A stretch of DNA of 64,000 bases from Escherichia coli (GTDB taxonomy: Bacteria > Pseudomonadota > Gammaproteobacteria > Enterobacterales > Enterobacteriaceae): assembly GCF_044324875.1 (NCBI RefSeq), contig NZ_CP172188.1; one strand, given 5' to 3'. The translations under genes and the position numbers were made by a program. Position 1 is the stretch's first letter. Each line of letters opens with the position of its first letter. Below are positions 1,098-61,104 of this stretch, in pieces. A model generated the notes under the pieces. It saw only the letters and a list, made by a program, of their open reading frames with translations. It was not told where the DNA came from and ran no database searches.

Positions 1098-4000
1098 GTG
1101 AAAATAACATTCTCCATACCCTCTCAACCGTACCGCATAGCGGATTTTTTACGGTTTAGAGGGGGTAATCCTTTGGATAAACTACTTCATTCAATCAGTG
1201 AAGCCTCCAGCTTAGGCGAACTGATTGAAATTGTTAGTCGGTTGCATAAATTACGTGCTGTTGCGACCTTTGGCGTTAAGAAAGTCGATGGTGTCAGCAT
1301 TCAAAAAACACGGCGGGCAGCAAACAACGCCGCAGTAGAGCTTCTTAATTCCCTTCCGCCCGGCTTCGATGGGGCGAAATTAACTGACGAACAACGTCAG
1401 ATTCTTGCCGGGTATACCGGTGAAGGCGGCCTGACAGATGGTGAGGGCAGCCAATACGAATACTACACACCACAGTTTATGGCTGAAGGTATATGGGATC
1501 TGTTTGCTGACTACGGTATTGATGGCGGGCACGTACTGGAACCATCAGCGGGCACAGGTATTTTCCAGGAGACAAAACGGCAGGGCATGATAATGACCAG
1601 CGCCGAACTATCTCCGATTTCCGGTCGAATAAACCAGCTTTTGCACCCGGAAGACGATGTGAATATCGGGGCGTTTGAGGCGCTGGCGGCGAAAGACGCA
1701 ATGTATGACCACGCTGTTGGTAACGTACCGTTTGGTGAAGGGCGTTCCGGCGTTGCCGGGCTTGATCCGGCATATGCAAACGAGAAGAACGTTGGCAATT
1801 ACTTTGTGCTGCGCACGATCGACAAGGTTAAGCCTGGTGGACTAATTGTATTGGTGGTGCCGAATGGCATGACCGATGGTACGAAATACAAAAAATTGCG
1901 CGATAAAGTCAGCCGTAAAGCGGAATTTTTGGGCGCACATCGTATGCCTTCTGGTACGTTCAGCGAATCCGGTACAGATACAGTGGTGGACGTATGGGTA
2001 TTGCGTAAACACCCGGAAACCTTCCTGGAGATGATCCCCGACACGGATGATGCAACGCTCAAGTCGGCAAACGTCCTTTGGGATACCTTCCTCAAAGGGA
2101 AATGGTTTACAACCGAAGGGAAGCGATTTGTTTACGGCGATATGGAGCGTACCAGCTTCCGCAATACCCTGGTGGTGAAAAAGGACGGTCGTGTATCCAA
2201 TGAGTCGATGAAAAACGCTCTATCGCGCCGCTTTGAAAGCCGCATTAATTGGGATTTGCTTGGCGTAACTACTCAGGCATGGCAGGGCGCGAAAGTGGGC
2301 GATAAACGCCTTGTAGGCGGCATCTGGCATGAGTTTGATGGCCTGAAATGGGTCAAGGACGCGACAACCAAATCCTCCGCGCTTGATGTAAATCGATATG
2401 GTGTTACGACGTTTGGTGATCTGCAGATCGCGTTTCAGTCAACAAATGGCATTCTGGCGTTGTCATGGGACCAGATATCGGCGATCGCGTCCGACTATCC
2501 GTCGGTTATCAGTGATGAAGTAGCGGCAATGATTCGCTTTGCTGGCAAGCAGAGAGAAAAAGACAGAGAACGCGTTATGCGCGGCGCACTGATAGGGCAG
2601 TTGATCAACAAGGCGCTTGATAAGCGTAATCTGGGGGAAAATGTTGATGATGAACTTGCTGATGCCGCGCGCCTGGCGGAAGCCGAAATTGCGAAGTATG
2701 GTCCGCCGCACGCGATTAAGCTGAATGGGATTGCTGAAGCTGGCGCTAAAAACTGGATGACTTTCACTGGCAACGTGAAACAGGACGGCTCTGCTTCTGA
2801 CCTCCTTGCTGGACGACTTGATGTAACGGATGGTGCTGCCGGTATTGACTTTACACGCCCGGAACAAGTTGTAACCCACCTTTTCAGTGACGTGGCACTT
2901 AATCCAATCACACTGGACGATTTTCGTGAGGCGTTTGCTGGCGAACTGCCAGAAGACGAAGATGCTGCTCTGGAATACCTGGCGAAATTTGATGATATCG
3001 CTATTGATGGGTATGGCTGCCTGCTGCCGATGGACCGCGCCACCAGCGGCGATATTGCAACCAAAACAGCATTGCTGGTGGGCTGGCGTGATGCGTCAAC
3101 AGGTGAGCAGAAAGCGAACTTTGAGCGTCAGTTGGCGAAAATCGAAGAGAAACGCATTTTCACGCCACTAAATAAAGTCACCGTTAATCTGAACGCCCGC
3201 TGGCTGGATCGCCGCTTGATAAAAGAGTTCCTGGCAGAGCAGGGCTATGACGAGTTTAAGTATACAGAACCCGACCTTAAGGTTGAGGACGGCATTCTGG
3301 TATCTCCGGACGATTACGAAGGTAAGGACGGGGTATTTACTGGCTATCAACTACGAACCGTAAACGGCAAAAACGGGAATGAGTTCAAGAAGGCCAACAA
3401 TAAAGACGGCTTCCTGAACCAGTTAGAAAACTACCTGAACGGCATTAAACCGCGTGGGCAGAACGCTAACGAGTACCTGGATAAGATTGCTCAACTGGAA
3501 ATTAGCTTCAACGACTGGTTACGCACTCACCCGCAGGCTGATCAGATAGCCCGCGACTATAACGACGCATTTAATGGCTTCATCCCGTTTACGCATTCTG
3601 ACGCACCGCTTGGCCTGGAGGGGATTAGTGGGAAGCGCATTCCTCTGACTTATCAGAATGAAGAAGTTCGGCGCTTGTCAGAAGATGGGCGCGGCATCAT
3701 GGGATTTGGTACCGGGCTGGGTAAAACCACGACCGCGCTTGCGCTTGAGGCGTATAACTTCGAAACAGGTCGCACTAAACGCACGTGTATTGTTGTTCCG
3801 AAGGCGGTTTATCAGAACTGGTATCACGAGGCACAGAGCTTCTACAGTGCTGATGCCTTCGCCAATATGATGTTTATCGGTCTGGATGAAGTTCGTGATG
3901 ACAGCGGAAATATTCTGACCGCGCCGGTGCTTGATGAAAATGGCGAACCACGCCTCGACAGTAACGGGCAGCCTCTTACCCGAAATGTTGTGAAAGAGTC

Positions 4001-7000
4001 CGCCAGCGCCGTTATCGTTCAGCGCATGAACATGATCCCGTCGTCAAATTGGCGAACGGTCATCATGACAAAAGAGCAATTCGCGTCTATCCCGCTACGA
4101 GAAGAAACCATTGAGGAAAACTCACAGCAAGCGGTCTTTAATGCTGTGGAAATGGGGCGTCTTGACCTGGCATCTGGCAAACACCGTGACGCGCAGAAGA
4201 AGAACAAGATTAAGGACCAGGCCGCAAATACCGGTACAACGAAGAAGCAGAATATCCCGTACTTTGAGGATATGAACTTCGATAGCGTAATTGCCGACGA
4301 AGGGCATAACTACCGCAACTCCTTTAGCGCCGGGCGCGAAGCGGGGCAACTGGCATATTTGCCTAACCCGGCAGTATCCAAAATGGCCCGCGACATGGCT
4401 GTAAAAGCTGCGTACATGATGAAACGCAACAACGGGCGTGGTGTGGTTATGCTGACGGCAACACCGCTGGTGAACAGCCCGATTGATGCTTTCAACATGC
4501 TGTCTACTGTCATTCCGCAGGAAGAGTGGATGCGCATGGGTATTGTTACGCCGGATGATTTCGTTCGCGTGTTCGGTAAAACAGCCACAGTTCAGGTTCA
4601 GAAAATTTCCGGTGAGGTGGAAGAGAAGCAGGGACTGGTGGGCTTCCAGAACCTGGATGGTCTGCGTGGTATTTTCCATCGCTGGACTACTCTGAAGACT
4701 GCTGCGGACGTCGGGGCGACGGTAAAAATCCCTGATATTGTCGAGAATACCTTGCAGATCCCGATGACAGGAGAGCAAGAGGCCATTTACGAAGAACTTC
4801 GTAAGCGTGCACAGGAGTTAAGTAGTAAAGATGCGCTGACGGTCGATGAAAACGGGCATATCACAAACGAAAAACCGGATGATTTCATCTTCTCCATCAT
4901 CCGCGACATGGATAAGGTTGCTATAGATCCTGATCTGTATGCCAGTGCGATTACATTCCAGTTCCCCGTTGAGCTTGCAGACAAGGTAAAAGCTATTGCT
5001 GATGCCCTGCCAAAAGTAGCTGGCGGTAAAGTGGCAGATGATGTAGACGAGGCCGAAGAAGATGGCGCTGGTGGGCTGGTCAGTACGCGTACCAGCAAGG
5101 TAGTGAAGACCACCTTTAGCGAACATCCGTCGCATGTTGAAATACGTGCTGGCATTGAACTGGAAGCTGAAATACTGAAGGCCATTGCGGCTGCCGGTAT
5201 TGATATGCAGCAGGTATCACACCCCATCCCGCCGAAGTATGCCGCGCTGATCGAAAACCTTCGTGAAGGTCTGAAGAACGGTAAACAAATCGTCTTCATT
5301 GATGAAAAAGCCCAGCACCAGAAGCTGCGCCGTATTATTGCCAGTGCACTGCAAATGCCGGAGCAGGAGATAGGCATTATCAATGCGACGACAGTTAGCC
5401 AGGCTGGCGGCGTCAAGCTGAAGAAGGTGAATAAGCCGACTGAACCTACGCCAAATAAAAACGGTGAATACAAAGAAGGTGCATGGGAAACCTACTACAG
5501 CAAACTTGCCCAATATGAGGATTATCTCTCAGCTAAAAATGATGCTGGCCTTGAGGGCATGGAAGGTATTGCCGCCGACTATAACGAAGGTCGCACGCGC
5601 ATCATAATCTGTAACAAGAAGGCTGAAGTAGGTATTAACTTGCACATCGGGACAACCGATATCCACCATCTGACACTACCCTGGACTCCTGCCAGTATCG
5701 ACCAACGTAATGGGCGCGGCGCTCGGGTAGGCTCACCACAAGAAAAGGTCAATGTTCACTACTATTGTGGCAAAGGCACATTTGATGACTTCCGTCTGGA
5801 TACGCTGAAACGTAAGAAGGACTGGATCAATATGGTGATGACCTCCGACATGTCAGAGATCGCCAATGGTGATGCGGATGACGCAGATGAACGCGCCATT
5901 ATGCTGGCGGCAAATCCGGAAGAACGCCGTGCAATCATGAGTCGTCAGGCGCAAGAGCGTGAAGAACGTCTGAAACTGAAAGCCCTACGCGAAGCCAATA
6001 ATGCTCTCGATAACTACCTGAAAGCGGCGAATGCTGCCGGGAAAGATATCGGCATGATGGAGACAGAACTGAAAAGCGCGATGGAGCAGGTAGAGCATTA
6101 CCAGCGCAATCTTGACGACCTGATTAAAGCGGGGACGAACAGGAACGGGCAGAAATATGTTCTGGAACAGTTGCGAGACTACAGAAAACGTGTGCGGGAG
6201 CTACGCTTTGCGATCACCAGAGCTAAAGACGCTGACACCGTTATGAAACGTTCTCGTGGTGATCTGGAACGTGCGATTAAAGCCGGGGTTCTGGAGCTTG
6301 ATGCCGATGTATTGCAGAACCCACAGGAGTATGTACGCACTGAGAAAAATATCTTGTTGCACAAGGGCAGCCATTATCGCGCGATCATCGATGAGAATCA
6401 CAATACGACAGCAATTGTTCGTGTTACCGCCATTGATGCGGAAAGGGGCGGGTGTACGTGCCGCATATCCTGGCTGGATGTGGCTAGTCGTTACTCTCGT
6501 TCTCCGGGGACGGCATTATTTTTGCCCTTTAACCTGATAATTGAATCGGTAACCTTTGAAGAGGGAGTTGCAGAATCGCGTGAAACAGCTGCACGTGGTG
6601 TTCAATGCCACCAGCTATCAACAACACTTACGCGCGATCAGTTCTATGATGCTATTCGCAATGGGGTAATGAATGTCACTGCCGGGAAGCCTAGTAGAGT
6701 ATGGGGCGGTGGTTCAGCTATTAAATACTGGGCTTATCGCACCGATGATGGTCAGATTGCACTGTCATCGGCTTATGATGGCGTAATAGGTCAAAAAATC
6801 GGGCGAGCATCGGATATAGCGCCTGAGCGGTGGATTTACCCTGATGGCAACGATGAGGCGCTGAAGCGTGAAGTGGCAAAAATACAAGCCAGTGATAACC
6901 CGCTGAATGTCGTGGACGGCGAGGGATTCCTCCAGGCATTGTATGGATATGATTACATCCAGGGAATGCAGGCATGGGGGTCACAGGCCACGATGGATGA

Positions 7001-12451: not shown

Positions 12452-12528
12452 GATGGTGTAGCTCAGTAGGATAGAGCAGCAGCCTTCTAAGCTGTCGGTC
12501 GGTGGTTCGAATCCACCCACCATCGCCA
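12452..12528 (+). tRNA. tRNA-Arg (anticodon TCT)
   Basis: 77 nt; 7-bp acceptor stem GATGGTG/CACCATC, D-arm GCTC..GAGC, anticodon loop CTTCTAA, T-arm GGTGG TTCGAAT CCACC, encoded CCA. Confidence 0.9.
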
Positions 12529-12530
12529 AT

Positions 12531-12606
12531 GCCGGTTTAGCTCAGTTGGTAGAGCGCCTGCCTTGTAAGCAGGATGTCAGCGGTTCGAGTCCGTTAACCG
12601 GCACCA
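12531..12606 (+). tRNA. tRNA-Thr (anticodon TGT)
   Basis: 76 nt; acceptor GCCGGTT/AACCGGC, anticodon loop CTTGTAA, T-loop TTCGAGT, encoded CCA; P1 also carries a tRNA-Thr. Confidence 0.9.
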
Positions 12607-12608
12607 AC

Positions 12609-12694
12609 ACAACAGGTAAGGGTATTTTGCGACGTCGGAGATCGCCGTGCTTGGCAGAGGGTTCGAATCCCTACGAAGTACCCTTACCGTTGTG
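12609..12694 (+). other. tRNA-like remnant / structured element: 15-16 bp stem enclosing a T-loop-like GGTTCGAATCC
   Basis: ACAACAGGTAAGGGTA ... TACCCTTACCGTTGTG inverted repeat; no canonical D or anticodon arm identifiable. Confidence 0.25.
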
Positions 12695-13071
12695 ATGAAG
12701 TGCAGCTCTTTGAAGCAACCAGAAGATAAGCATCTGGCTTCACAACATAAACCGCAGGAACGACCAATAAACGGTAGTCCGTATGGAGAATACCCCGTTG
12801 AGGAAGAGGCCTGGCCGGAACCGTAACCGGCACTACAACGTTGAGAACACTGACGTAACGGGGTCATATCCCAATCTACGAATAAATGTTGCGTTGCAGC
12901 GTGACAACCAGTGTTCTCAACGTTGTGGTGGATTCGCAGACTGATGCGATAGCTTTCTTGGATGTTAGGGAAATGCGGCCGCAAACCTTCCCTTTCGCGA
13001 GCGGTGATCGTCCGTAGTCCTAATTGGCTGCACCGTATGCCGGAGATTCAGTACCGGCCACCACAACGGCC

Positions 13072-13158
13072 GGAGAGTAGGGAGCATGGTGCTCAAGCGG
13101 TCTTGAAAACCGTCCCATTGCGCAAGCGATGATGGTTCGATTCCATTACTCTCCGCCA
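13072..13158 (+). tRNA. atypical type-II (long variable arm) tRNA-like gene, anticodon possibly TGA (Ser-like); may be a pseudo-tRNA
   Basis: 87 nt; acceptor GGAGAGT/ACTCTCC, anticodon stem-loop GCGGT-CTTGAAA-ACCGT, T-arm GATGG TTCGATT CCATT, discriminator G + CCA; D-arm irregular. Confidence 0.4.
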
Positions 13159-13561
13159 TCGCAACGTTAAGAGTATTTGGCTAATTAAGCGAATGCCGGA
13201 AGCAGAACCGGATCAACAAATGCGTACAGGCGTCATCGCCGCCCAGCCAGCCAAGTGCTCTTACCATTGCGGTGAATGCGGCTAAGCGCACGCGGAACAG
13301 TTAAAACAATCCTGCTTACTAAACATCCCGGCGTTAATTGTTAACTGGTTAACGTCACCTGGAGGCACCAGGCACCGCAATCTAACAGCAATGGCGTTTT
13401 GTCTTAAAAGGTAGCTGCAAGTGATGGATTTTTGGGCCTTTGCCGATAAGAACCCTGGTTGGACATTTTTATTTCTGCTGGTGGTTGCATATGGGATCGA
13501 GCAAGCGGCAAAAGCCTTACGCGGTTCTGGCAAAAAGCGTAAGCGGAATTAACAGTAATCT

Positions 13562-13637
13562 GGCCCTTTAGCTCAGTGGTTAGAGCTGGCGACTCATAAT
13601 CGCACGGTCACCGGTTCAAGTCCGGTAGGGGCCACCA
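13562..13637 (+). tRNA. tRNA with CAT anticodon, most likely tRNA-Ile2 (lysidine type) rather than elongator Met
   Basis: 76 nt; GGCCCTT acceptor, anticodon loop CTCATAA, T-loop TTCAAGT; resembles enterobacterial ileX-type tRNA as I recall it; P1 also encodes a tRNA-Ile. Confidence 0.85.
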
Positions 13638-51109: not shown

Positions 51110-52090
51110 GTGGCCCAGGAGTTACAACAATATTTTCTACAGTCAGTGCTCATTAACGATAACAAAGTGCCACGAGACTGGATTTTTACCGCAGTATATG
51201 TAGAAAAAACCAGCCTCAAAGCCCCTTTGCTAAAACTGGAAATTCATGACGCTACCGGCACCGTAATTGATGACTGGAAAGCCAAATACGGTGCATCGCT
51301 GGTGGCTGAAATGGGCGATCCAAACGGTAATGCAGGCACTTTTAAAACAGATTTCTTTGTTACGTCTGCAATGCTGGCTGGTGATGTTGTTACCGTTATT
51401 GCTGTCAGTGAAGACGTGCGCAGGTTTAAGATCCCCTCCCCGCGCACAAATTTACATACCAACAAAACACCAGACGCTATATTCAAGGCATATTCCGGCA
51501 AGCTTAAAATTACCAGCAGCGTGCTAAAACGCGCAGTTACATATCATCTGAATGCCGGTGACAAACCGTCAAAAATGCTTTCGGAGATAGCGCGAGACAA
51601 AGGTGCATTATGTTGGGTATGCCGGGGGGAATTTAACTTTTACACCCTGGATGATCTGATGAAGCAAACGCCATCATTTACCTACGAGGGGAATAACCCT
51701 AAAGCAGAATACACTTTGTCCAAAATGCGCCTACTCCAACAGGAACATGCGACAACAGCAAAGAATCAATATCGTTTTGTTGGGTATTCCATGACCGATG
51801 GCTACGTCGAATATGGCGATAGCTCACTCCCAGTGCGTTATATATCCGACTCTGATATGGAAACTCTTCGCAATATGCAGCTGTCTCTCGTCCCCAAAAT
51901 GGATATAGAAGTCGCAGGCAATCCGGATATAAAACCGGGAATGGTAATAGAGATTATCGTATACCGCTATGACCAGGAAAACCGCATTGATGAATCAATG
52001 CCCCGCAAGCTGATAGTAAAAAATGTTGCGCACTTTGAAGACCGCGTAGGCTACACAACACGAATGATATTAGGAGTGCCGAACAAATGA
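51110..52090 (+). CDS. putative baseplate hub (gpD / gp27-like) protein
   Basis: 326 aa immediately upstream of the gpV-like spike; assignment by position and size. Confidence 0.35.
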   Translation: MAQELQQYFLQSVLINDNKVPRDWIFTAVYVEKTSLKAPLLKLEIHDATGTVIDDWKAKYGASLVAEMGDPNGNAGTFKTDFFVTSAMLAGDVVTVIAVSEDVRRFKIPSPRTNLHTNKTPDAIFKAYSGKLKITSSVLKRAVTYHLNAGDKPSKMLSEIARDKGALCWVCRGEFNFYTLDDLMKQTPSFTYEGNNPKAEYTLSKMRLLQQEHATTAKNQYRFVGYSMTDGYVEYGDSSLPVRYISDSDMETLRNMQLSLVPKMDIEVAGNPDIKPGMVIEIIVYRYDQENRIDESMPRKLIVKNVAHFEDRVGYTTRMILGVPNK

Positions 52091-52740
52091 AGCGTAGAGC
52101 GCAAATTGTTGGAACTGTGCACCCGGCAGGGCTTATGCGTGCTCAGGTCCGTGTTTTACCAGACTGGAATGGCGTTCCTGATGACGATCTACCCTGGGCA
52201 GAATACCTGTTACCCATAGGTAACGCGTTTGTACCTACAGTAAAAGGCGACCTGGTATGGGTAGAGTTTCCTTATCTGGATGTTAATGGTCGAATTGATA
52301 CCAGACGCCCAATGATAGTTGGCGCAGCTCAGGATGCGCCTGGCGGAGTACCAAACGTCGCGCCGGAGGCGTCAGGCAATGGTAGCGGCTGGACGCCACC
52401 AGAAGTAGACGGAGCGCCTCCCCGCCCGCAATTTTCGGCGACAAAAGATTTCGTGATTCACCGCAACAATGTGCTCGAAGTGCGAACGGCTGGCGGTGGA
52501 TATGAAATAGCGAATACGGCAGCAGGCTCAAGGATTGGAATGAATGAATCAGGGCAGATATACATCATTGGTCCGGCTGATGTAGTAGTGAATGCGGGAG
52601 GGAGTGTTAACGTCAAATCAGCCGATAACATCAGCGTTAATGGCAAAAACATTACTGTGACAGCCGACGAAAATATTGATTTCAAGGCTGGAGGCACCTT
52701 CCAGGCTATCGCAAGCAACTTTGATTTCAAGAAGGGATAG
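52087..52740 (+). CDS. baseplate spike protein (gpV / Mu gp45-like OB-fold)
   Basis: N-terminal GTVHPAGLMRAQVRVLPDWNGVPDDDLPWAEYLLPIGNAFVPTVKGDLVWVEFPYLDVNG resembles gpV family. Confidence 0.55.
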   Translation: MKRRAQIVGTVHPAGLMRAQVRVLPDWNGVPDDDLPWAEYLLPIGNAFVPTVKGDLVWVEFPYLDVNGRIDTRRPMIVGAAQDAPGGVPNVAPEASGNGSGWTPPEVDGAPPRPQFSATKDFVIHRNNVLEVRTAGGGYEIANTAAGSRIGMNESGQIYIIGPADVVVNAGGSVNVKSADNISVNGKNITVTADENIDFKAGGTFQAIASNFDFKKG

Positions 52741-52750
52741 AAAACACATC

Positions 52751-52792
52751 CAATTGTGTTAGATAATTGAACAGAATTTTCTAACACAATTG
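52751..52792. promoter_or_regulatory. palindromic operator-like site upstream of rdgC
   Basis: CAATTGTGTTAGA ... TCTAACACAATTG, perfect 13-bp inverted arms. Confidence 0.6.
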
Positions 52793-52799
52793 GTGAAAC

Positions 52800-53705
52800 A
52801 TGAGATCAGTCGCTTTCAAAAACATCTTCATCTATCGTCTTTCACGTGAAGTTAACTGGAGTGCCGCAGAAGTATCCGATGCTCTTAGCAAATTCGTGTT
52901 TACTCCTTGCGGTTCTCAGGACACAGCTAAAGTCGGTTGGACACCTGTTCTTGGTGACAACCTCACCCATGAATACCAGGGTTTTCTGCTAATACAGCAT
53001 AAGCGAGAAGAAAAAATTCTCCCCTCGCAGGTGCTCAAGGAAGAGTTGCAGAAAAAAGTCCTGAAACTCGAAGAAGAGCAAGCCCGCAAGCTGAAGAAAA
53101 CGGAAAGAGACAGTCTTAAAGATGAAGTCCTGCATTCCCTTTTGCCTCGCGCGTTCACGAGAAAATCACTCGCCAAAATCCTGATCGACCGCAGCAACCA
53201 TCTGGTATTCGTTGAGGCAAGCAGCGCCAAAAAGGCAGAGGACCAGCTGGCTTTATTGCGAAAATCGCTCGGCAGCCTGCCTGTCATTCCATTCACACCA
53301 CGCGAACCGCTGGAAATTACAATGACCGAGTGGTTTAAAAACGGCTTCCCTGCCGGATTTACAGCAGGTGAAGACGCCACATTAAAGGGTCTGCTCGATA
53401 ATGGTGGTGCCGTTCGCTGCAACAAAGTTGATCTACAGTCCGACGAGATTATGTCTCACATTGAGGCGGGGAAAGTAGCTACGACCGTTGCAATTAACTG
53501 GATGGAACGCGCGTCGTTCAGAGTCAACGATGATATGAGTATCAAAGCCCTGACATTCTGTGATGATCTCTATGACCAGAACGACGATATCGACCGGGAG
53601 GATGTAGCACAACGATTTGATGCTGATTTCGTGCTCTTTACGGGCGAATTATCTGCACTGTTTAACGCGCTGGTGGAGGCCATTGGCGGTGAAGCAGAAC
53701 GATAA
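52800..53705 (+). CDS. rdgC: RdgC recombination-associated protein
   Basis: 301 aa; near-colinear with E. coli RdgC ([61 protein letters not shown]). Confidence 0.9.
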
Positions 53706-53718
53706 TAACCGACAGCTT

Positions 53719-54369
53719 GTTGTGAGTCTTTGTGATTTTACGGGGGCAATGGTTGCCCCCTGGCTGGAATACGGTGTCGATGCCGCTATCGTCGATCCAC
53801 AGCACTTATCGACCAGTGACGAGCGGATGCAATCAGGTGCCGTTCTGACGCGTATTAGTGCGATCATCGATAGCGATGAAGTATACGCTTTTCTTCGTAA
53901 GAATTTGCAGCGCATCGTGTTTCTGGCCGGGTTCCCACCGTGTACTGACCTGGCTGTTTCCGGCGCGCGCTGGTTTTCTGACAAGGCTAATAAAGATCCG
54001 GTTTTCCAGTTCAAAGCAATGCAGGTTGTCTGGCAGTGTTACGACATTGCAAAGATGATTGGTTGCCCGTACATGATTGAAAACCCGGTCAGCCAAATAT
54101 CGACATTCTGGCGTAAACCTGATCACATCTTCCATCCTTACCACTTCACTGCATATTGCAAGGAAGACAATTACACCAAAAAAACATGCCTCTGGAGCGG
54201 GCAAGGCTTTGTCATGCCTGATGCCCTAATGGACGAATCATTAGGCAAGCCAGATAACAGAATCCATACCGCGCCACCTGGACCTGAAAGGGCTAATTTT
54301 CGAAGTGCTACTCCGCATGGATTCGCAAAGGCAGTTTTCGAAGCGAATAAGGGGGTGCTCTATGAGTAA
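53719..54369 (+). CDS. compact C5-cytosine-methyltransferase-like protein (start uncertain, GTG/TTG near 53719)
   Basis: Motif-IV-like FLAGFPPCTDLAVSGA (Pro-Cys) and motif-VI-like IENPV; no clear target-recognition domain. Confidence 0.4.
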   Translation, partial: VVSLCDFTGAMVAPWLEYGVDAAIVDPQHLSTSDERMQSGAVLTRISAIIDSDEVYAFLRKNLQRIVFLAGFPPCTDLAVSGARWFSDKANKDPVFQFKAMQVVWQCYDIAKMIGCPYMIENPVSQISTFWRKPDHIFHPYHFTAYCKEDNYTKKTCLWSGQGFVMPDALMDESLGKPDNRIHTAPPGPERANFRSATPHGFAKAVFEANKGVLYE

Positions 54370-55267
54370 ATCTATAGCAAGCATAGCCATAGAAAAACAG
54401 GATACGATGGCTGAAATTAGCTATATGCGCACCATTCGGACTCAGGATGAATATGAGCGCCCGATCTTCAAATGGGTAGGCGGTAAATTCTCAGAGTTGC
54501 CTACAGTGCTTGAGCATCTACCACACGGCAAGCGGTTAATAGAACCATTCGTTGGTGGCGGTTCCGTATTTACAAATGCAGGATTTCGCCACAACCTGCT
54601 TAATGATATTAACGGTGACCTGATTAACTTCTATCAGACATTGCAGCGAGAAGGACATTCGCTCGTCACGCTGTCATATAGTTTTTTCCAAAATTACAAC
54701 AACGCTGACGCTTACCTCGAAGTGCGTGAGGCATTTAACAGAGGAAAGTATGACCAGCTACATCATGCTGCCGCCTTTTTGTACCTTAATCGGCACTGTT
54801 TTAATGGCGTAACGCGGTACAACCAAAATGGCGAGTTCAACGTGGGGTATGGCAAATACAAAGCGCCCTACTTCCCACATGCAGAGATGGAGGCATTTTT
54901 GGCTGATGACGTACTCAAAAACACGTCCTTTGTATCAGGTGACTTTGCTGGCGTCATCGAGGCGGCTGGTGAAGGCGATGTGATTTTTTGCGATCCGCCG
55001 TATGAACCGCTGCCGGATACAGAAGGGTTTACCAGTTATTCAGGAAATAGCTTCCGTTTCGACGAACAGAAACGGCTGGTATCTCTATTGGTGGAAGCCC
55101 ACCAGCGCGGCGCTAAGGTAGTGATAACAAATAGTGGTGCGCCAAACATCCGTGAACTATATGAAGGAAACGGGTTTAAAGTACATCATATGGCAGCCAG
55201 ACGGTCGGTTTCCTGCAAGGCGTCAACACGTGTAGTTGCTAACGATATAATTGCAATAATGAAGTAA
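54362..55267 (+). CDS. dam: DNA adenine methyltransferase (Dam family)
   Basis: FKWVGGK ... EPFVGGGSVF (SAM binding) and catalytic DPPY; overlaps upstream gene by 8 nt. Confidence 0.85.
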   Translation: MSKSIASIAIEKQDTMAEISYMRTIRTQDEYERPIFKWVGGKFSELPTVLEHLPHGKRLIEPFVGGGSVFTNAGFRHNLLNDINGDLINFYQTLQREGHSLVTLSYSFFQNYNNADAYLEVREAFNRGKYDQLHHAAAFLYLNRHCFNGVTRYNQNGEFNVGYGKYKAPYFPHAEMEAFLADDVLKNTSFVSGDFAGVIEAAGEGDVIFCDPPYEPLPDTEGFTSYSGNSFRFDEQKRLVSLLVEAHQRGAKVVITNSGAPNIRELYEGNGFKVHHMAARRSVSCKASTRVVANDIIAIMK

Positions 55268-55297
55268 AAAACGCCGCAGTAGCGGCGTTTACTTTTT
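55266..55297. terminator. bidirectional rho-independent terminator between dam and glnS
   Basis: AAAAACGCCGCAGTAGCGGCGTTTACTTTTTC. Confidence 0.7.
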
Positions 55298-55315
55298 CAT
55301 GTGGCGAAATACCTA

Positions 55316-56977
55316 TTAACCTAACTTCGCCCAGGTATCACGCAGCCCAACGGTGCGGTTAAATACCGGTTTTTCCGCCGTAGAATGGCGGCTATCGAGG
55401 CAGAAGTAACCTTCACGCTCAAACTGGAATGCTTTACCCGCAACCGCATCTTTCAGCGACGGTTCAGCAAAGCCCTGTTTGATCACCAGCGATTCCGGGT
55501 TAATCACCGACAGGAAATCATCCGCAGCACCTGGGTTAGGCACGCTGAACAGACGATCGTACAGGCGGATTTCAACCGGCAGCGCATGTGCCGCGCTCAC
55601 CCAGTGAATAACGCCTTTCACTTTACGACCATCTGCCGGATCTTTGCTTAAGGTGTCGGCGTCATAAGTACAGAAGATGGTGGTGATATTGCCTTCGGCA
55701 TCTTTCTCCACGCGTTCAGCCTTAATGACGTAAGCATTACGCAGACGCACTTCTTTACCCAGCACCAGACGTTTGTACTGCTTGTTAGCTTCTTCGCGGA
55801 AATCGGCGCGGTCGATCCAAATCTCACCGCTAAACGGCACCTGACGGCTACCCATTTCCGGTTTGTTCGGATGGTTCGGCATGGTGACCATTTCGCCTTC
55901 GCCCTGGTAGTTTTCGATAACCAGTTTCACCGGATCGATAACCGCCATTGCGCGCGGCGCATTTTCGTTGAGATCTTCACGGATGCAGGATTCCAGCGAC
56001 GCCATCTCAATGGTGTTGTCCTGCTTGGTCACGCCGATGCGTTTGCAGAACTCACGAATAGAAGCCGCAGTGTAACCACGACGACGCAGACCGGAAATGG
56101 TCGGCATACGCGGGTCATCCCAGCCTTCAACGTGTTTGTCGGTCACCAGCAGGTTCAGCTTACGCTTGGACATCACGGTGTATTCCAGATTCAGGCGCGA
56201 GAATTCGTACTGGCGCGGGTGAACAGGAATGGTGATGTTGTCCAGCACCCAGTCGTACAGGCGACGGTTGTCCTGGAACTCAAGCGTACACAGAGAGTGC
56301 GTAATACCTTCCAGCGCATCGCTGATGCAATGGGTGAAGTCGTACATCGGGTAGATGCACCACTTGTTGCCAGTCTGGTGGTGTTCAGCAAATTTAATGC
56401 GGTACAGCACCGGATCGCGCATTACGATAAATGGCGACGCCATGTCGATTTTCGCACGCAGGCAGGCTTTACCTTCTTCAAAACCACCGGCACGCATTTT
56501 TTCGAACAGCGCCAGGTTCTCTTCAACGCTGCGATCGCGGTACGGGCTGTTTTTACCCGGCTGCGTCAGGGTGCCGCGGTATTCGCGGATCTGTTCCGGC
56601 GTCAGTTCGTCAACATACGCCAGGCCTTTGTTGATCAGTTCAACAGCATAGGCGTGGAGCTGATCAAAATAATCGGAGGAGTAACGGATGTTGCCAGACC
56701 AGTGAAAACCTAACCATTCAACGTCGTTTTTAATCGACTCGACGTACTCGATATCTTCTTTTACCGGGTTAGTGTCGTCGAAACGCAGGTTGCACTGGCC
56801 TTTATAGTCCTGGGCGATCCCGAAGTTCAGGCAGATAGATTTCGCATGACCAATATGCAGATAGCCATTCGGTTCCGGCGGGAAACGGGTATGTACTGTG
56901 GTGTGCTTACCACTGGCCAGATCTTCATCGATGATCTGACGAATAAAGTTAGTCGGGCGGGCTTCTGCCTCACTCAT
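55316..56977 (-). CDS. glnS: glutaminyl-tRNA synthetase
   Basis: 553 aa; class I HIGH (HIGHAKS) and KMSKS-type (VMSKRK) motifs; essentially colinear with enterobacterial GlnRS. Confidence 0.95.
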
Positions 56978-57168
56978 TGTGGATTCCTCAAAGCGTAAAC
57001 AACGTATAACAGCGTATGATCTTATAAGCCGAATAGGCTGACAACCACTAGTTGATTAGAAATTGCTTTCTATCGTTATTTCAATAATGAGCTTTTTCAT
57101 TAAGCCCACTTTTGCGCATAAGTAAATTAATGACAAATGGTACACAATTGGAACCAAAAAGGATGTAA

Positions 57169-57201
57169 AGGTGCACCAAATTAGTGGTGTATTGGTGCAC
57201 C
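57169..57201. repeat. palindrome GGTGCACCAA-N13-TTGGTGCACC
   Basis: Perfect 10-bp inverted arms downstream of the parG-like gene / upstream of glnS; adjacent TTGGAACCA-type motifs. Confidence 0.5.
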
Positions 57202-57245
57202 TTTGGTTCAAGACTTTTTAAGTTCTAAAACCAACCTGAAAGACT

Positions 57246-57533
57246 TTATTTTGCTTCCTCAGACTCCGCTAACATGAGGATAGCATGGCGGATCATATTC
57301 AATTTGCTACGATTATGCTTTTTACTTAACGCATCAAGTACCTGGTACTCGTATTCATTGAAACCAACACGAATAGATTTAAAATCACGTGGAGCGTCCT
57401 TATCGAGCACTTTGTTGTCTTCTGGTTGCTCACCCGGCACCAAATCAGCCTTACTTGCAAAATCCTCAATTCGGCGTTCAAGATCGGGGTCTTTTACTTC
57501 GGGGGCTTTTACCGATTTACGAGGCTTAATCAC
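57246..57533 (-). CDS. ParG-like ribbon-helix-helix partition protein
   Basis: 95 aa; C-terminal RHH-like SIRVGFNEYEYQVLDALSKKHNRSKLNMIRHAILML; start overlaps ParF-like stop. Confidence 0.5.
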   Translation of the reverse strand: MIKPRKSVKAPEVKDPDLERRIEDFASKADLVPGEQPEDNKVLDKDAPRDFKSIRVGFNEYEYQVLDALSKKHNRSKLNMIRHAILMLAESEEAK

Positions 57534-58167
57534 TTAATAACTCCTTAACCAACATCTGGATTTCACCTTTAGCTTTCCCGTTGTCCATCTCAACAACGCC
57601 CTTCCCTTCAGCCATGCAATCGCGGTAAACCTTACGATCACGAATGATGGTTTTCAGCAACTTCAGTTGCGGATATTCAGCCAGGTACTCTTTGGCCTCA
57701 TTGGTTTCATTCACAACCGGATTGGATGGGGCCATTGTTAAGACTGCGAACGCCTTAATGCTAGGATTAGGCATCAGGTCCAAAGCCTCTTCAAACACTT
57801 CAACAAAGTGTGCCAGCGTGTCTAAATCTGGTTGAGATGGTCTGAATGGGACCAACACAATATCTGCAGCGGTTATGCCTGTACGCATCTCTTTGCTATC
57901 GCGCCCGGCTGTATCAACAACTACAAATTCATAACGCTTATCCAGATCGAGAAGTGTTTCTCGAATATTACCAAACTTCTGGACACAATGAATTACAGGA
58001 GAAACCTCTGCCGTGTTACGGTCAGCGGCCCAGCGGGCAGCTGTTCCTTGCTTGTCTGCATCTAGTAACACTACATCCTTATTTTCGCGGGCAAGCTCCG
58101 CACAGATGTTTACGCTTGTGGTTGATTTTCCACAGCCACCTTTTTGGCTGACTACCAATATAATCAT
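57526..58167 (-). CDS. ParA/ParF-family partition ATPase
   Basis: 213 aa; deviant Walker A VVSQKGGCGKST and motif LLDADKQG. Confidence 0.8.
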   Translation of the reverse strand: MIILVVSQKGGCGKSTTSVNICAELARENKDVVLLDADKQGTAARWAADRNTAEVSPVIHCVQKFGNIRETLLDLDKRYEFVVVDTAGRDSKEMRTGITAADIVLVPFRPSQPDLDTLAHFVEVFEEALDLMPNPSIKAFAVLTMAPSNPVVNETNEAKEYLAEYPQLKLLKTIIRDRKVYRDCMAEGKGVVEMDNGKAKGEIQMLVKELLSD

Positions 58168-58189
58168 ATCCGTTCCTCGGTGTTATTTT

Positions 58190-58406
58190 GGTATCAAACT
58201 GGTTCCAAACAGAAGCCTTATTGATGCGGTTTTGGCTCTATAGTGGAGTCATTATGCTTTGCAAAAGTATAACACTAATCATTCTAAATTTGCCCTCTGT
58301 TGCATCCTGTTTAACACGAAATCAGCACTAAATTGGAACCAGATACAAAGCAGCACCATAACAACACCGTTTTGGTACTAAAAGAGCACCAAACTAGAAC
58401 CATAAC
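58190..58406. repeat. repeat-rich putative centromere/operator region of the ParF/ParG module
   Basis: CAAACTGGTTCCAAAC, TAAATTGGAACCAGATAC, AAACTAGAACCATAAC and related copies. Confidence 0.45.
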
Positions 58407-58452
58407 GGTATAAAAAAGGCTGCAAATTGCAGCCTTTGAAGATGTAGATTGG

Positions 58453-58824
58453 TTAATCAGGGAGTGAGTTTGCCAAATTCTGAGCAGAGCGGCTTTTCGG
58501 AACGCCTGGTTTTTTTACATCCTCTGAGACAGAGGTTTTTCCTTCAGTAGGTTCCCGAACTTCATGCGAAATTTCAAGAAACGAAACCAGCATTTTTCTG
58601 ATCACTTCAGAGCTATTATCACCGGATAAAAGCGATGCCAACATGGGAGGTAATCTGCTATCAACCTCGCCAAGAGCGATACCTGCAAGCATCGCAGTGC
58701 GCACCATATCATTGCGATCACTTAATGGATGGGCCTCAATTTTTGCCACAGCATATTGCTCACTGGCGTAAGCGTTAAGATCTGAACGAAGATAAAACAT
58801 TATTTTTCGACGTTCTTTAGACAT
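58453..58824 (-). CDS. parR: ParR-like centromere-binding protein
   Basis: 123 aa immediately downstream of parM; hairpin terminator follows at 58410..58436. Confidence 0.5.
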   Translation of the reverse strand: MSKERRKIMFYLRSDLNAYASEQYAVAKIEAHPLSDRNDMVRTAMLAGIALGEVDSRLPPMLASLLSGDNSSEVIRKMLVSFLEISHEVREPTEGKTSVSEDVKKPGVPKSRSAQNLANSLPD

Positions 58825-58834
58825 GGCAACCTCA

Positions 58835-59794
58835 TCAACCGATAGATTTTAGACCATATACAAGAGCAAGTTGTGGATCATCAGCAACGAAAAACCTATC
58901 GTCACGAATGTTTACCTGCTCACGGATAGCATCAGCAACAAGCGGCGCGCCGCCACCAATTACCATAACATGTGTGTATCCTTTGAAATCACTGATCACA
59001 TCCAGTACGCGTGTACGGAGTCGCTCTATGCTTGACGAAATGGCTTTCTTAACATCATCAATAGCAGACGGATCGTTAATATTGTCGGTCAGATAATCCT
59101 CATCATCTCGATTAATGATTAATTGATCGACGTTATAATTAGAGGTTTCGGTATTAGCTTTTGCAAGTGCCTGTCTGACCTCTTTAGTTACCAGCGAAAC
59201 GCCGAGATTAGAATCGCCAAATACGCGAGAAACGGCGGTCATTTGCCCGGCAACCATCGACACATCCAGAGTAGTCCCGCCAAGATCAACAATAAGCACA
59301 GAATGCGCTGGCACAAGGCTGTCGCACAGACCGATCCCTGCGGGTATTGACTCCGGGCGCACAGTCACTTTTTTGATAGTAAAAACCTGACCTTTGTTAA
59401 GGGTGACTGGTCGCATCAGGCTGGCCTTTTTCCGCTCAATATTTTTCATGTTGTATTGTGCGTCGTCGTCATAAAACTCTGCCAGTGGCAACGTGACTAC
59501 TATTTCCACTTCTTGAGGCTCAATGCCACTTGTAAGCAGGGCATGATGAACAGCAAGCACATTAAGCGGGCTGTATTGCCATTCAACGTTATTCGTTGGC
59601 AGAGCATCCGGCGAGATCAAGTCATATGAATATTTTTCGTCATCAATGATGTAGTTAAACGTTTTTCCTGCGCCAAATGTGGCGGACCATCCACGTTTAA
59701 AACTGTTCGGGCAGATATGGGTTCGAGTTTCCCCGTCTTGTTCCCACAGCATTTTGATATTGGTAGAACCATCGTCGATAAAAATGCGCATCAT
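58835..59794 (-). CDS. parM: ParM/StbA actin-like segregation ATPase
   Basis: Start MMRIFIDDGSTNIK (GGAG RBS); blocks SPNSF, VHHALLTSG, IVDLGGTTLDVS, GDSNLGVSLVT, YTHVMVIGGGA match R1 StbA as recalled. Confidence 0.85.
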   Translation of the reverse strand: MMRIFIDDGSTNIKMLWEQDGETRTHICPNSFKRGWSATFGAGKTFNYIIDDEKYSYDLISPDALPTNNVEWQYSPLNVLAVHHALLTSGIEPQEVEIVVTLPLAEFYDDDAQYNMKNIERKKASLMRPVTLNKGQVFTIKKVTVRPESIPAGIGLCDSLVPAHSVLIVDLGGTTLDVSMVAGQMTAVSRVFGDSNLGVSLVTKEVRQALAKANTETSNYNVDQLIINRDDEDYLTDNINDPSAIDDVKKAISSSIERLRTRVLDVISDFKGYTHVMVIGGGAPLVADAIREQVNIRDDRFFVADDPQLALVYGLKSIG

Positions 59795-59890
59795 ATTGCT
59801 CCACTTCTGAGACACATTTGAGAAAGAATTGAATCTTATATGAGAAAACAAAATAAAACCAGAAGTTGAGAGAGCAAAAAGCACCAGATT

Positions 59891-59956
59891 TGAGACAAAC
59901 CAGAGACAAACCAGAGACAAACTAGAGACACACTAGAGACAAGTATGAGAAACAAG
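59891..59956. repeat. parC-like centromere: five to six tandem 11-bp iterons
   Basis: TGAGACAAACC AGAGACAAACC AGAGACAAACT AGAGACACACT AGAGACAAGTA upstream of parM. Confidence 0.65.
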
Positions 59957-60013
59957 AAATCTTAAGAGTGAAAATCACAAAGTGGAGAAGATTTAAGAAA
60001 AAGGAGGTGTTAG

Positions 60014-60298
60014 ATGAGTGCAATAGCGACCTGTGACACAGTTTGTTCCGGTCATGGAGGATTCCCTCCGCGACCTGTAGCAGAAACAGTTTCCTGGTTT
60101 ACCGTAAATGGAAAGCCAGTTGTTGTAGATGGTGCCATGTTTCCCAGTCACACTGACGGTAACAGTGCACATCCAGGGGCAGCTGTATCGACGCGAGTAT
60201 GGTTTTCGATAGGTGGAAAGGGAGTTGTCTGTGTAGGCGATCCGCTTTCTTGTGGTTCTGTTATCGCCAACGGCGAGGATATTTTTCAGGTTGCATAA
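60014..60298 (+). CDS. PAAR-like spike-tip protein
   Basis: 94 aa, Cys/Gly-rich with HPGAAV and repeated G-x-V segments; my reading of the printed sequence around 60013-60061 differs from the ORF track by one base, track coordinates used. Confidence 0.45.
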   Translation: MSAIATCDTVCSGHGGFPPRPVAETVSWFTVNGKPVVVDGAMFPSHTDGNSAHPGAAVSTRVWFSIGGKGVVCVGDPLSCGSVIANGEDIFQVA

Positions 60299-61104
60299 TG
60301 CTTGATTCAATAGGTGAAGTTAAAGCCTTCAAAATTCTGTCAGATGCCGGTATCTCTACACCAGAATCTATAACCATAAGCCGGGCAGCTTCTGTAAAAG
60401 CCTCATCGCTCGCCAGCGCCATACAGGGAATAGTTCACGCCGATAAAACCTATCCTGATTCTGTTTCGGCCTGGACTACTCAATTGCTTGGCTTTTCTGA
60501 ACAGCTCAATGAGGCCAGCAAAGCGTCTTCATCACTGGCTGATTCTCTTTCCCCATACACCAAGCCATCAGAGCTGTTACAGATGAAGATTGGCTGGGAA
60601 TGCTACGCAAAAGGTAACGAGCTGACCCCCATACCTGCTTTCGCCCTTGTTGAGGGAATGGGGAATGTTTCCATTCCGCAATCTCTAACGGACGCATTGA
60701 CGGCGCTAAAACTTGATGCTCTGAAAACCGCCATGAACGCCATTAACGCAAAAATTGAAGCTGCCGGAAGTGCTGGTGGTGGTGAAAGCAATGGTGGACA
60801 GGGTGGTGCTGGGGGCGCTCAGGCTCCAGTCATTACTCAGGATGAAATTGATGCTTTACGGGAAGCAGTGACAGCCGCCGAAGTTTTACTCTCCGAAATT
60901 AACTCAGCAAGTGAGGGTGTCGTAGCCCTTACAGGTCGCATTAAAACGTCAACCACTCAGGCAACCAAAGGTTTAGAGAACGCTGTCGCCATCACGTTAA
61001 CTGGTTCTCTACTGGATGATGCAGTAATGAGTCCGGCAATCAGTTTAATCATGCCACAAGGCGTTATTGATGCGCTCCAAAAGAACACCAAAAAGGAACC
61101 ATAG
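60298..61104 (+). CDS. hypothetical protein (start at MLDSIGE, TAATG overlap with PAAR-like gene)
   Basis: ORF 60199..61104; Gly-rich linker GSAGGGESNGGQGGAGGAQAP. Confidence 0.45.
   Translation: MLDSIGEVKAFKILSDAGISTPESITISRAASVKASSLASAIQGIVHADKTYPDSVSAWTTQLLGFSEQLNEASKASSSLADSLSPYTKPSELLQMKIGWECYAKGNELTPIPAFALVEGMGNVSIPQSLTDALTALKLDALKTAMNAINAKIEAAGSAGGGESNGGQGGAGGAQAPVITQDEIDALREAVTAAEVLLSEINSASEGVVALTGRIKTSTTQATKGLENAVAITLTGSLLDDAVMSPAISLIMPQGVIDALQKNTKKEP

Follow-up and report, generated by a model that had tools for sequence, protein, structure and literature searches.

Among 13,661 plasmids, 30 complete aminoacyl-tRNA synthetase (aaRS) genes have been reported (PMC6785131), and one gene of this kind, the glutaminyl-tRNA synthetase (GlnRS) gene glnS, has been described in all D6-like phage-plasmid genomes, where it was called a moron and where a role in fitness or plasmid maintenance was suggested by analogy with cysS of plasmid pBT1 (PMC6799933, 2019). 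The latter report gives Gilcrease and Casjens (2018) as the source of the original observation of glnS in D6. D6-type glnS cargo has been known since 2018-2019, and a literature search found no later functional study of it. Morons, in the sense of Hendrix and colleagues, are extra phage genes with a promoter and a terminator of their own, such as bor and lom of phage lambda.

We analyzed a 64,000-nucleotide (nt) stretch of Escherichia coli DNA (assembly GCF_044324875.1, contig NZ_CP172188.1; the window) that carries a complete glnS. Our preferred reading, to which we assign a probability of about 0.6, is that this gene is a moron, i.e., a self-contained host transcription unit that separates two operons of the backbone of a D6-lineage phage-plasmid and would provide extra GlnRS dosage. 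The gene is inserted between neighbors that are adjacent, ~135 bp apart, in 20 related plasmids. It has a predicted promoter (57044-57016) and a predicted terminator (55290-55269) of its own, both homologous to the chromosomal signals. Its base composition is unlike that of its neighbors, with a third-position GC content (GC3) of 0.61 versus 0.48 +/- 0.06 in the other open reading frames (ORFs) of the window, about two standard deviations higher. What is added here to the previous reports is the boundaries of the unit, a sister lineage with an empty site, an estimate of selection, evidence for gene conversion, and the retention of chromosomal glnS.

The glnS gene and its host element

The captured unit consists of the following features:

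55316..56977, minus strand: glnS coding sequence (CDS) for a class I aaRS, an ORF of 553 amino acids (aa) with an ATG start and a TAA stop
57044..57016, minus strand: predicted sigma-70 promoter of glnS (consensus scan, 9/12 matches)
55269..55290, minus strand: intrinsic terminator, predicted on both strands, AAACGCCGC-TACT-GCGGCGTTT followed by a T-run
~55260..57057, minus strand: captured chromosomal segment of ~1.8 kb comprising the promoter, CDS, and terminator

In a profile search, the GlnRS ORF scored 1069.1 bits against the NCBIfam glnS equivalog TIGR00440 (cutoff, 425.8), with residues 28 to 551 spanning positions 1 to 524 of the 524-position profile. The protein aligns end to end with the E. 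coli GlnRS of PDB entry 1o0b, from which it differs by V97I, I112V, V552L, and the absence of E554. The three substitutions are conservative, and the enzyme is ~99% identical to that of the host. The class I signatures HIGH and VMSKR (KMSKS type) are intact and are the same in the solved E. coli enzyme; several solved GlnRS chains end at residues 547 to 549 and so lack the C-terminal residues. From the ~99% identity to PDB 1o0b and 1gtr, we infer that the window GlnRS charges tRNA-Gln with glutamine. The plasmid glnS is real and complete and very probably functional, and the ORF, the TIGR00440 match, and the 1o0b alignment all confirm the complete GlnRS gene that an earlier note on this DNA had recognized at 55316-56977.

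In PHROGs v4 the family is phrog_12136, a 553-position profile labeled "unknown function." The window protein matched all 553 positions with 1354 bits, and this PHROG is clearly GlnRS despite its label. GlnRS-like proteins with 48 to 55% identity to that of the window are also encoded on three IMG/VR viral contigs (L018, L019, and L020, one of them 159 kb long), and the L020 protein (L020:2983-4566) matches phrog_12136.

Escherichia phage D6 matches 94% of the 8.5 kb around glnS (positions 52000-60500 of the window) at 93.3% identity, and both share the order of tail/baseplate genes, rdgC, methylases, glnS, the parA module, and stbAB. In the sequenced 91,159-bp virion genome of D6, the annotation of orf62 reads "glutaminyl-tRNA synthetase, similar to E. 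coli GlnS." At megablast sensitivity, the glnS part had no match besides D6 among 50,697 phage genome records, and since D6 is the sole phage record matching, P1 and P7 are without glnS at that sensitivity. In PLSDB, 96 circular plasmids hosted by E. coli, Salmonella, or Shigella match 80% or more of the 8.5-kb context, and the full context is also present in 69 complete E. coli RefSeq genomes and in IMG/VR viral contigs. A 3.2-kb backbone probe had matches in 100 of 5,426 complete E. coli genomes, and in each of these the match lay on a plasmid. The relatives are circular plasmids of 87 to 95 kb, all assigned to rep_cluster_1704. Judged by sequence, the window is a D6-like plasmid prophage within the P1 supercluster, and like its relatives it may replicate as a circular plasmid and form virions. 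The element is related to phage D6 and is not P1 itself.

Three records deserve caution. In the D6-like plasmids CP088384.1 and CP042632.1, glnS aligns over 1663 nt rather than 1662 nt and is absent from the PLSDB gene table; a 1-nt indel may be present in each, reflecting a pseudogene or an error in sequencing. The 169-kb Salmonella sp. plasmid pSa1423-160k (L004, NZ_MK356558.1) has two glnS places at 90% identity and nearly no genes annotated nearby, and looks like an error-rich or duplicated D6-like assembly.

Boundaries of the captured unit

The limits of the unit were read from an alignment of the window with six E. coli chromosomes, K-12 among them, and with E. albertii, Citrobacter, and other sequences. 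Identity to the E. coli chromosomes was 97% in the CDS and 85 to 87% at positions -80 to -1; beyond -80 it was 35 to 40%, which corresponds to no homology. The right-hand end of chromosomal homology lies at ~57057 and not at ~57.25 kb, where the earlier note had put the junction. On the dam side, homology to plasmids with an empty site ends inside the last three codons of dam.

The predicted promoter consists of a -35 hexamer TTGTCA (57044-57039), a 17-nt spacer, and a -10 hexamer GATCAT (57021-57016) that includes a Dam site, GATC. In the alignments, both hexamers and the Shine-Dalgarno sequence are the same as those of chromosomal glnS. The D6-type upstream region differs from the chromosome by 10 to 12 substitutions per 80 nt, several of them in the promoter spacer, and these are common to all D6-type copies.

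The terminator stem, AAACGCCGC-NNNN-GCGGCG with a T-run, lies 27 nt past the glnS stop codon, and its T-run overlaps the stop codon of dam (55265-55267). A matching stem is located 3' of chromosomal glnS in Citrobacter, Pseudescherichia, and Escherichia sp. ESNIH1. The aligned E. coli chromosomes have extra intergenic sequence, by reading similar to repetitive extragenic palindromic elements (REP-like), between the glnS stop codon and the terminator; the D6-type copy has none. The prediction and the likeness to the chromosomal stem bear out the proposal that glnS has its own terminator. The C terminus reads WAKLG-stop versus WAKVGE-stop, and we considered whether this marks the 3' end of homology. 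This was rejected, as point changes (GTA to TTA and GAG to TAA) explain the difference and homology runs through the terminator. The captured insert is, according to these alignments and predictions, a whole transcription unit of promoter, CDS, and terminator.

One further feature lies upstream of glnS:

57167-57179 / 57192-57204: perfect 13-nt inverted repeat AAAGGTGCACCAA / TTGGTGCACCTTT with a 12-nt spacer, directly after the ParA-partner gene

A palindromic element had been noted upstream of glnS. The palindrome is present, but because chromosomal homology ends near 57057, it is part of the backbone and not of the captured unit. The repeat is identical in D6. In E. fergusonii and the relatives with an empty site it does not occur in this form, and they share just a TTTTGGTTCC...TGTGTA motif. 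No other exact copy was found in the window. A repeated par site was also rejected, as the window has no further good copy and matches with up to three mismatches were no more common than in shuffled sequences. The inverted repeat may terminate transcription of the par operon or serve as a protein-binding or centromere-like site.

Empty sites and number of captures

The site without glnS was searched for with a query in which the final 700 nt of dam were fused to 700 nt from orf61-parA. In 20 PLSDB plasmids, from E. coli, Shigella dysenteriae, and E. marmotae, dam and orf61-parA were contiguous, at the ~135-bp distance given above, and without glnS. Three of these plasmids were inspected. All three fall into the same replicon cluster and share its tail, rdgC, dam, parA, and parM genes, and their spacers contain a different, bidirectional terminator, AAAAGCCCCATATGGGGCTTTT, with no remnant of glnS. 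In complete E. coli genomes, there were ~80 glnS-positive versus ~20 glnS-negative sister plasmids. The statement that all D6-like genomes carry glnS is therefore not strictly true, and the existence of sister plasmids without the gene indicates that glnS is dispensable for the element.

An E. fergusonii plasmid carries a glnS that is 5% divergent and encodes 554 aa ending in WAKVEG, with both junction sequences as in the D6-type plasmids. Since the junctions match on both sides, this argues for a single capture of glnS before the D6-type and E. fergusonii plasmid lineages split.

A glnS with 87% nucleotide identity is also present on a 134-kb Enterobacter ludwigii plasmid that is not D6-like (NZ_CP116349.1, L005:3255-6929). 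There the gene adjoins two site-specific integrase genes, dinQ, and an SNF2-related gene. This is a second, independent capture by a mobile element.

Origin and exchange with chromosomal glnS

The earlier note had proposed a comparison of nucleotide identity and codon usage with the chromosomal gene. The window glnS was 96.4 to 97.9% identical to E. coli chromosomal glnS and 97 to 99.3% identical to the plasmid copies; it had the GC3 of 0.61 versus 0.48 described above; and 15 of its 15 Gln codons were CAG, versus 63% CAG in the rest of the window ORFs. In GC3 and codon choice the gene has thus stayed host-like. Pairwise nucleotide identities between groups were as follows:

D6-type copies among themselves: 96.6-99.6%
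D6-type copies versus E. coli chromosomal alleles: 95.5-98.4%
E. coli chromosomal alleles among themselves: 96.7-100%
D6-type copies versus E. albertii: about 94.5%
D6-type copies versus Citrobacter: about 87.6%

These identities point to an Escherichia-type chromosome as the source of glnS. The plasmid copies of glnS are 97 to 99% identical while the backbone varies (74 to 99.7% identity in rdgC-dam, and mostly 81 to 83% in the par region). The 80-nt promoter region is 13 to 15% diverged from E. coli and 16% from Citrobacter, and the CDS is 3% diverged from E. coli. As far as 80 nt can tell, this fits an old capture after which selection and recurrent gene conversion held the CDS close to that of E. 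coli.

Mosaicism was analyzed with 98 informative sites; the 80 loci that a single genome scan returned did not include the chromosomal glnS of E. fergusonii and Salmonella. In D6, nt ~1093 to 1583 of the CDS are of the K-12/O157 allele type, with 3 differences versus 19 to the nearest plasmid relative (max-chi2 P = 0.0005). An E. albertii-like tract was found in an IMG/VR copy (L007; max-chi2 P = 0.0005). The K-12-like tract is also present in the wild plasmids L122 and L125, and for this reason a laboratory event in the D6 host C600 was rejected as its origin. For the window and for copy L008, the max-chi2 test against plasmid and chromosomal parents was not significant (P = 0.10 and P = 0.30, respectively). 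The tracts show that plasmid glnS is a mosaic at the sequence level, with segments exchanged repeatedly with chromosomal alleles.

In a 34-kb draft contig (L127; GCA_053850155.1, JBSPSX010000016.1, positions 2700-4700), nagB-nagE and the chromosomal promoter are followed by a D6-type glnS and D6 backbone, and the switch from chromosome to D6 occurs between nt -1 and +87 of the CDS. This could be a Campbell-type cointegrate at glnS or, equally, a short-read chimera across ~120 identical nucleotides. Stable integration at chromosomal glnS was not seen, as the 3.2-kb probe found no D6 backbone on any chromosome of the 5,426 complete E. coli genomes.

Proposed role and alternative explanations

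An ancestor of the D6 lineage took up ~1.8 kb of an Escherichia-type chromosome with the glnS promoter, CDS, and terminator, and the segment now occupies the intergenic space where dam and the parA operon converge. In the moron reading, the product would be a fully active GlnRS equal to the host enzyme, and its own sigma-70 promoter would drive transcription in the plasmid prophage, apart from phage lytic control. A lysogen would have about twice the glnS gene dose, and far more upon lytic replication. Chromosomal glnS is derepressed in dam mutants (Plumbridge and Soll 1987, cited in PMC11741368), and transcriptome sequencing of a dam mutant gave a log2 fold change of +1.08 for glnS (PMC11741368). 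Because the -10 hexamer of the plasmid copy keeps the GATC through which methylation represses the chromosomal gene, the plasmid glnS may be best expressed on under-methylated DNA. By this analogy it is plausible that transcription is favored on unmethylated or hemimethylated DNA and would be highest just after entry or replication. The benefit would be a modest gain in charging capacity or robustness during lysogen or phage growth, with no new enzymatic property.

The ratio of nonsynonymous to synonymous substitution rates (dN/dS) was 0.029 among 11 plasmid copies (87 codons with synonymous and 8 with nonsynonymous polymorphism) and 0.007 among six chromosomal alleles. These values indicate strong purifying constraint on both plasmid and chromosomal glnS.

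Several points weigh against a role in GlnRS dosage. The four-fold gap between the two dN/dS values comes down to 8 versus 3 codons and is not significant, and the low dN/dS of the plasmid copies could partly result from the import of already-filtered chromosomal sequence by gene conversion. The promoter and terminator of the plasmid glnS are consensus predictions. Dam-coupled expression is extrapolated from the chromosomal promoter, and the D6-type spacer has several substitutions. The 20 sister plasmids without glnS suggest that the benefit may be small or nil. Finally, Gln makes up 3.6% of the element's proteins and looks not raised, Gln being ~4.4% of E. coli proteins; an extra demand for Gln was dropped as a cause on account of the 3.6%.

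The alternative that survives best, though we consider it unlikely, is that glnS is a neutral hitchhiker or homology handle: of no benefit through its enzyme, harmless, repaired by gene conversion, and allowing cointegration, marker exchange, or nag-glnS transduction by way of 1.7 kb that nearly match the chromosome. The clear mosaicism with chromosomal alleles, the chromosome-D6 join in L127, and the sister plasmids without the gene are in line with it. However, the absence of D6 backbone from the chromosomes of the complete E. coli genomes makes stable integration rare at best, and the promoter hexamers, Shine-Dalgarno sequence, reading frame, and terminator are kept in ~100 copies, including the 5%-divergent E. 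fergusonii copy and Salmonella-borne ones. Conversion of the Salmonella-borne copies by the host gene, which is presumably more divergent, would be expected to be inefficient.

A more elaborate version of a beneficial glnS, which we regard as doubtful, is that the second glnS is a selected and regulated module. A Dam-sensitive burst of GlnRS would protect or restore Gln-tRNA charging at entry or induction, guarding for example against toxins that cleave the acceptor stem of tRNA-Gln, and recurrent gene conversion would keep the enzyme matched to the tRNA-Gln of each new host. In a variant of this proposal, the shared 1.7 kb would let the element transiently cointegrate at glnS and mobilize neighboring chromosomal DNA.

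Addiction by take-over of an essential gene, in which the chromosomal glnS is silenced or decayed and plasmid loss becomes lethal, appears improbable. The CysRS encoded by pBT1 is the essential copy in Salmonella D23580 (PMC6785131), a maintenance role like that of pBT1 has been proposed for the D6-like glnS (PMC6799933), and the plasmid glnS adjoins maintenance modules. However, the 5,424 E. coli genomes that matched contained 5,427 chromosomal glnS places, and in the carriers Survcare253 and CUVET16-559 the chromosomal and plasmid glnS are each annotated as intact and are distinct alleles. In presence and intactness, no loss of chromosomal glnS was thus seen in the 5,424 genomes and the two carriers. 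The element moreover already has toxin-antitoxin modules, i.e., a RelE/HigA pair in D6 and phd-doc and higA-higB (PMC6799933).

The earlier note had also suggested that a second GlnRS could buffer the host against toxins or inhibitors that target tRNA or synthetases, which we judge to be just as improbable. In this reading, extra GlnRS would protect tRNA-Gln or recharge it in the face of a competitor toxin, a defense nuclease, or a synthetase inhibitor. No PADLOC defense model matched GlnRS and no toxin or immunity gene is adjacent; among the neighbors of glnS, the sole PADLOC matches were those of the methylase to methyltransferase models. For other aaRS, a second synthetase copy gives resistance, as with the mupirocin-resistant IleRS. 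An E. coli toxin that cuts the acceptor stem of tRNA-Gln, CdiA-CT EC869, exists (PMC9071432). Our literature search found no toxin known to act on E. coli GlnRS itself and no natural inhibitor of the enzyme. An inhibitor- or toxin-resistant paralogue was rejected, as three conservative substitutions and one lost C-terminal residue separate the protein from that of the host. At ~99% identity there is no resistant variant to propose, and of this idea nothing but a possible dosage effect is left.

An assembly artifact, with a contig that is chromosomal or chimeric at the glnS junctions, has a negligible chance despite the near-identical chromosomal paralogue in every host and the chimeric look of L127, since phage-plasmid backbone flanks glnS on both sides and the same junctions are present in D6 (annotated by Gilcrease and Casjens), the 96 PLSDB plasmids, the 69 E. 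coli genomes, and the IMG/VR contigs.

Neighboring genes and tRNAs

The genes around glnS and the tRNA genes of the window are as follows:

52800..53705, plus strand: rdgC homologue (P1 hrdC-like), backbone; ORF, annotated rdgC in D6 and plasmids, with PF04381 on homologues
54305..55267, plus strand: Dam-family adenine methylase, backbone (TIGR00571, 249 bits; D6 orf63), convergent with glnS
57246-57533, minus strand: 95-aa ParA partner (phrog_9169; weak Arc-like ribbon-helix-helix match at the C terminus, E = 1.8e-4)
57526-58167, minus strand: small ParA ATPase of the first partition module (NF041546 ParA_partition, 162.8 bits, below the cutoff of 180)
58453-58824, minus strand: StbB of the second partition module (D6 annotation and Pfam on homologous genes; PF10784 and PF06406 for the module)
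58835-59920, minus strand: ParM/StbA of the second partition module (longest ORF; homologues of 318 aa; D6 annotation and Pfam on homologues)
12452-13637: four tRNA genes (Arg-UCU, Thr-UGU, Ser-UGA, and Met-CAU), none of which reads Gln codons

The profile matches and the D6 annotation confirm the flanks as first described, with dam and rdgC on one side and two partition systems on the other. A putative cytosine methylase is also located on the rdgC/Dam side, and the first partition module (57246..58167) lies upstream of glnS in the same orientation. In some relatives dam appeared to be a pseudogene; this was rejected, as the gap in the gene table is an annotation gap and the ORFs are intact. 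The two partition modules of the window (57246-59920) are 96.6% identical to those of the glnS-less D6-like plasmid pEC361_3 (L115, NZ_AP027414.1) and 81 to 83% identical to those of most glnS-positive plasmids. These identities indicate that the modules beside glnS have been shuffled between glnS-positive and glnS-less lineages.

The tRNA genes and glnS had been taken together as a capture of translation-apparatus genes. The tRNAs are 40 kb away and look like a separate feature. The codons of the four tRNAs, AGA, ACA, UCA, and possibly AUA, occur 7.6, 14.6, 13.9, and 12.9 times per 1,000 in the window ORFs, above their frequencies in E. coli. The tRNAs look like a compensation for codon usage that is unrelated to glnS. 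The first of them was assigned to Arg by ARAGORN; for pYU39_89, Asn has been given (PMC6799933).

Significance and comparison with known systems

Why mobile elements carry copies of essential translation genes is rarely explained, and functional data have been obtained for pBT1 cysS alone (PMC6785131). In the D6 lineage, nature provides a clean experiment, with glnS-positive and glnS-negative sisters, a promoter that is Dam sensitive on the chromosome, and visible sequence exchange. If beneficial, the gene would represent tuning of host translation by a phage-plasmid; if neutral, it would illustrate well how gene conversion can keep a paralogue intact. In annotation terms, the feature is the known D6-type glnS.

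D6 orf62 and the copy of pYU39_89 are the closest counterparts, with glnS at the same dam-parA site and in the same 553-aa form ending in WAKLG. The D6 and window genes are 97.7% identical in the CDS and 100% identical in the 80 nt upstream. The difference between them is allelic only, as the two carry different chromosomal-type tracts in the 3' half. With K-12 glnS (b0680), the plasmid gene shares the hexamers with GATC, the Shine-Dalgarno sequence, the terminator stem, and, except for four changes, the enzyme. In contrast to the chromosomal copy, it does not have nagE upstream, and it resides on a low-copy element that amplifies on induction.

The cysS gene of pBT1 is likewise a complete aaRS gene duplicated on a large enterobacterial plasmid (PMC6785131). 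However, its product is distinct from the chromosomal enzyme, charges less efficiently, and is less stable (PMC6785131). In D23580 the chromosomal cysS is strongly downregulated (PMC6799933). Here the plasmid enzyme is nearly identical to that of the host, and the chromosomal glnS is retained. The gene resembles other morons in having its own signals, in lying between genes that are adjacent in relatives, and in its different base composition. Typical morons, however, are surface or virulence factors, whereas the D6 glnS is a duplicate housekeeping enzyme gene that still recombines with its chromosomal source.

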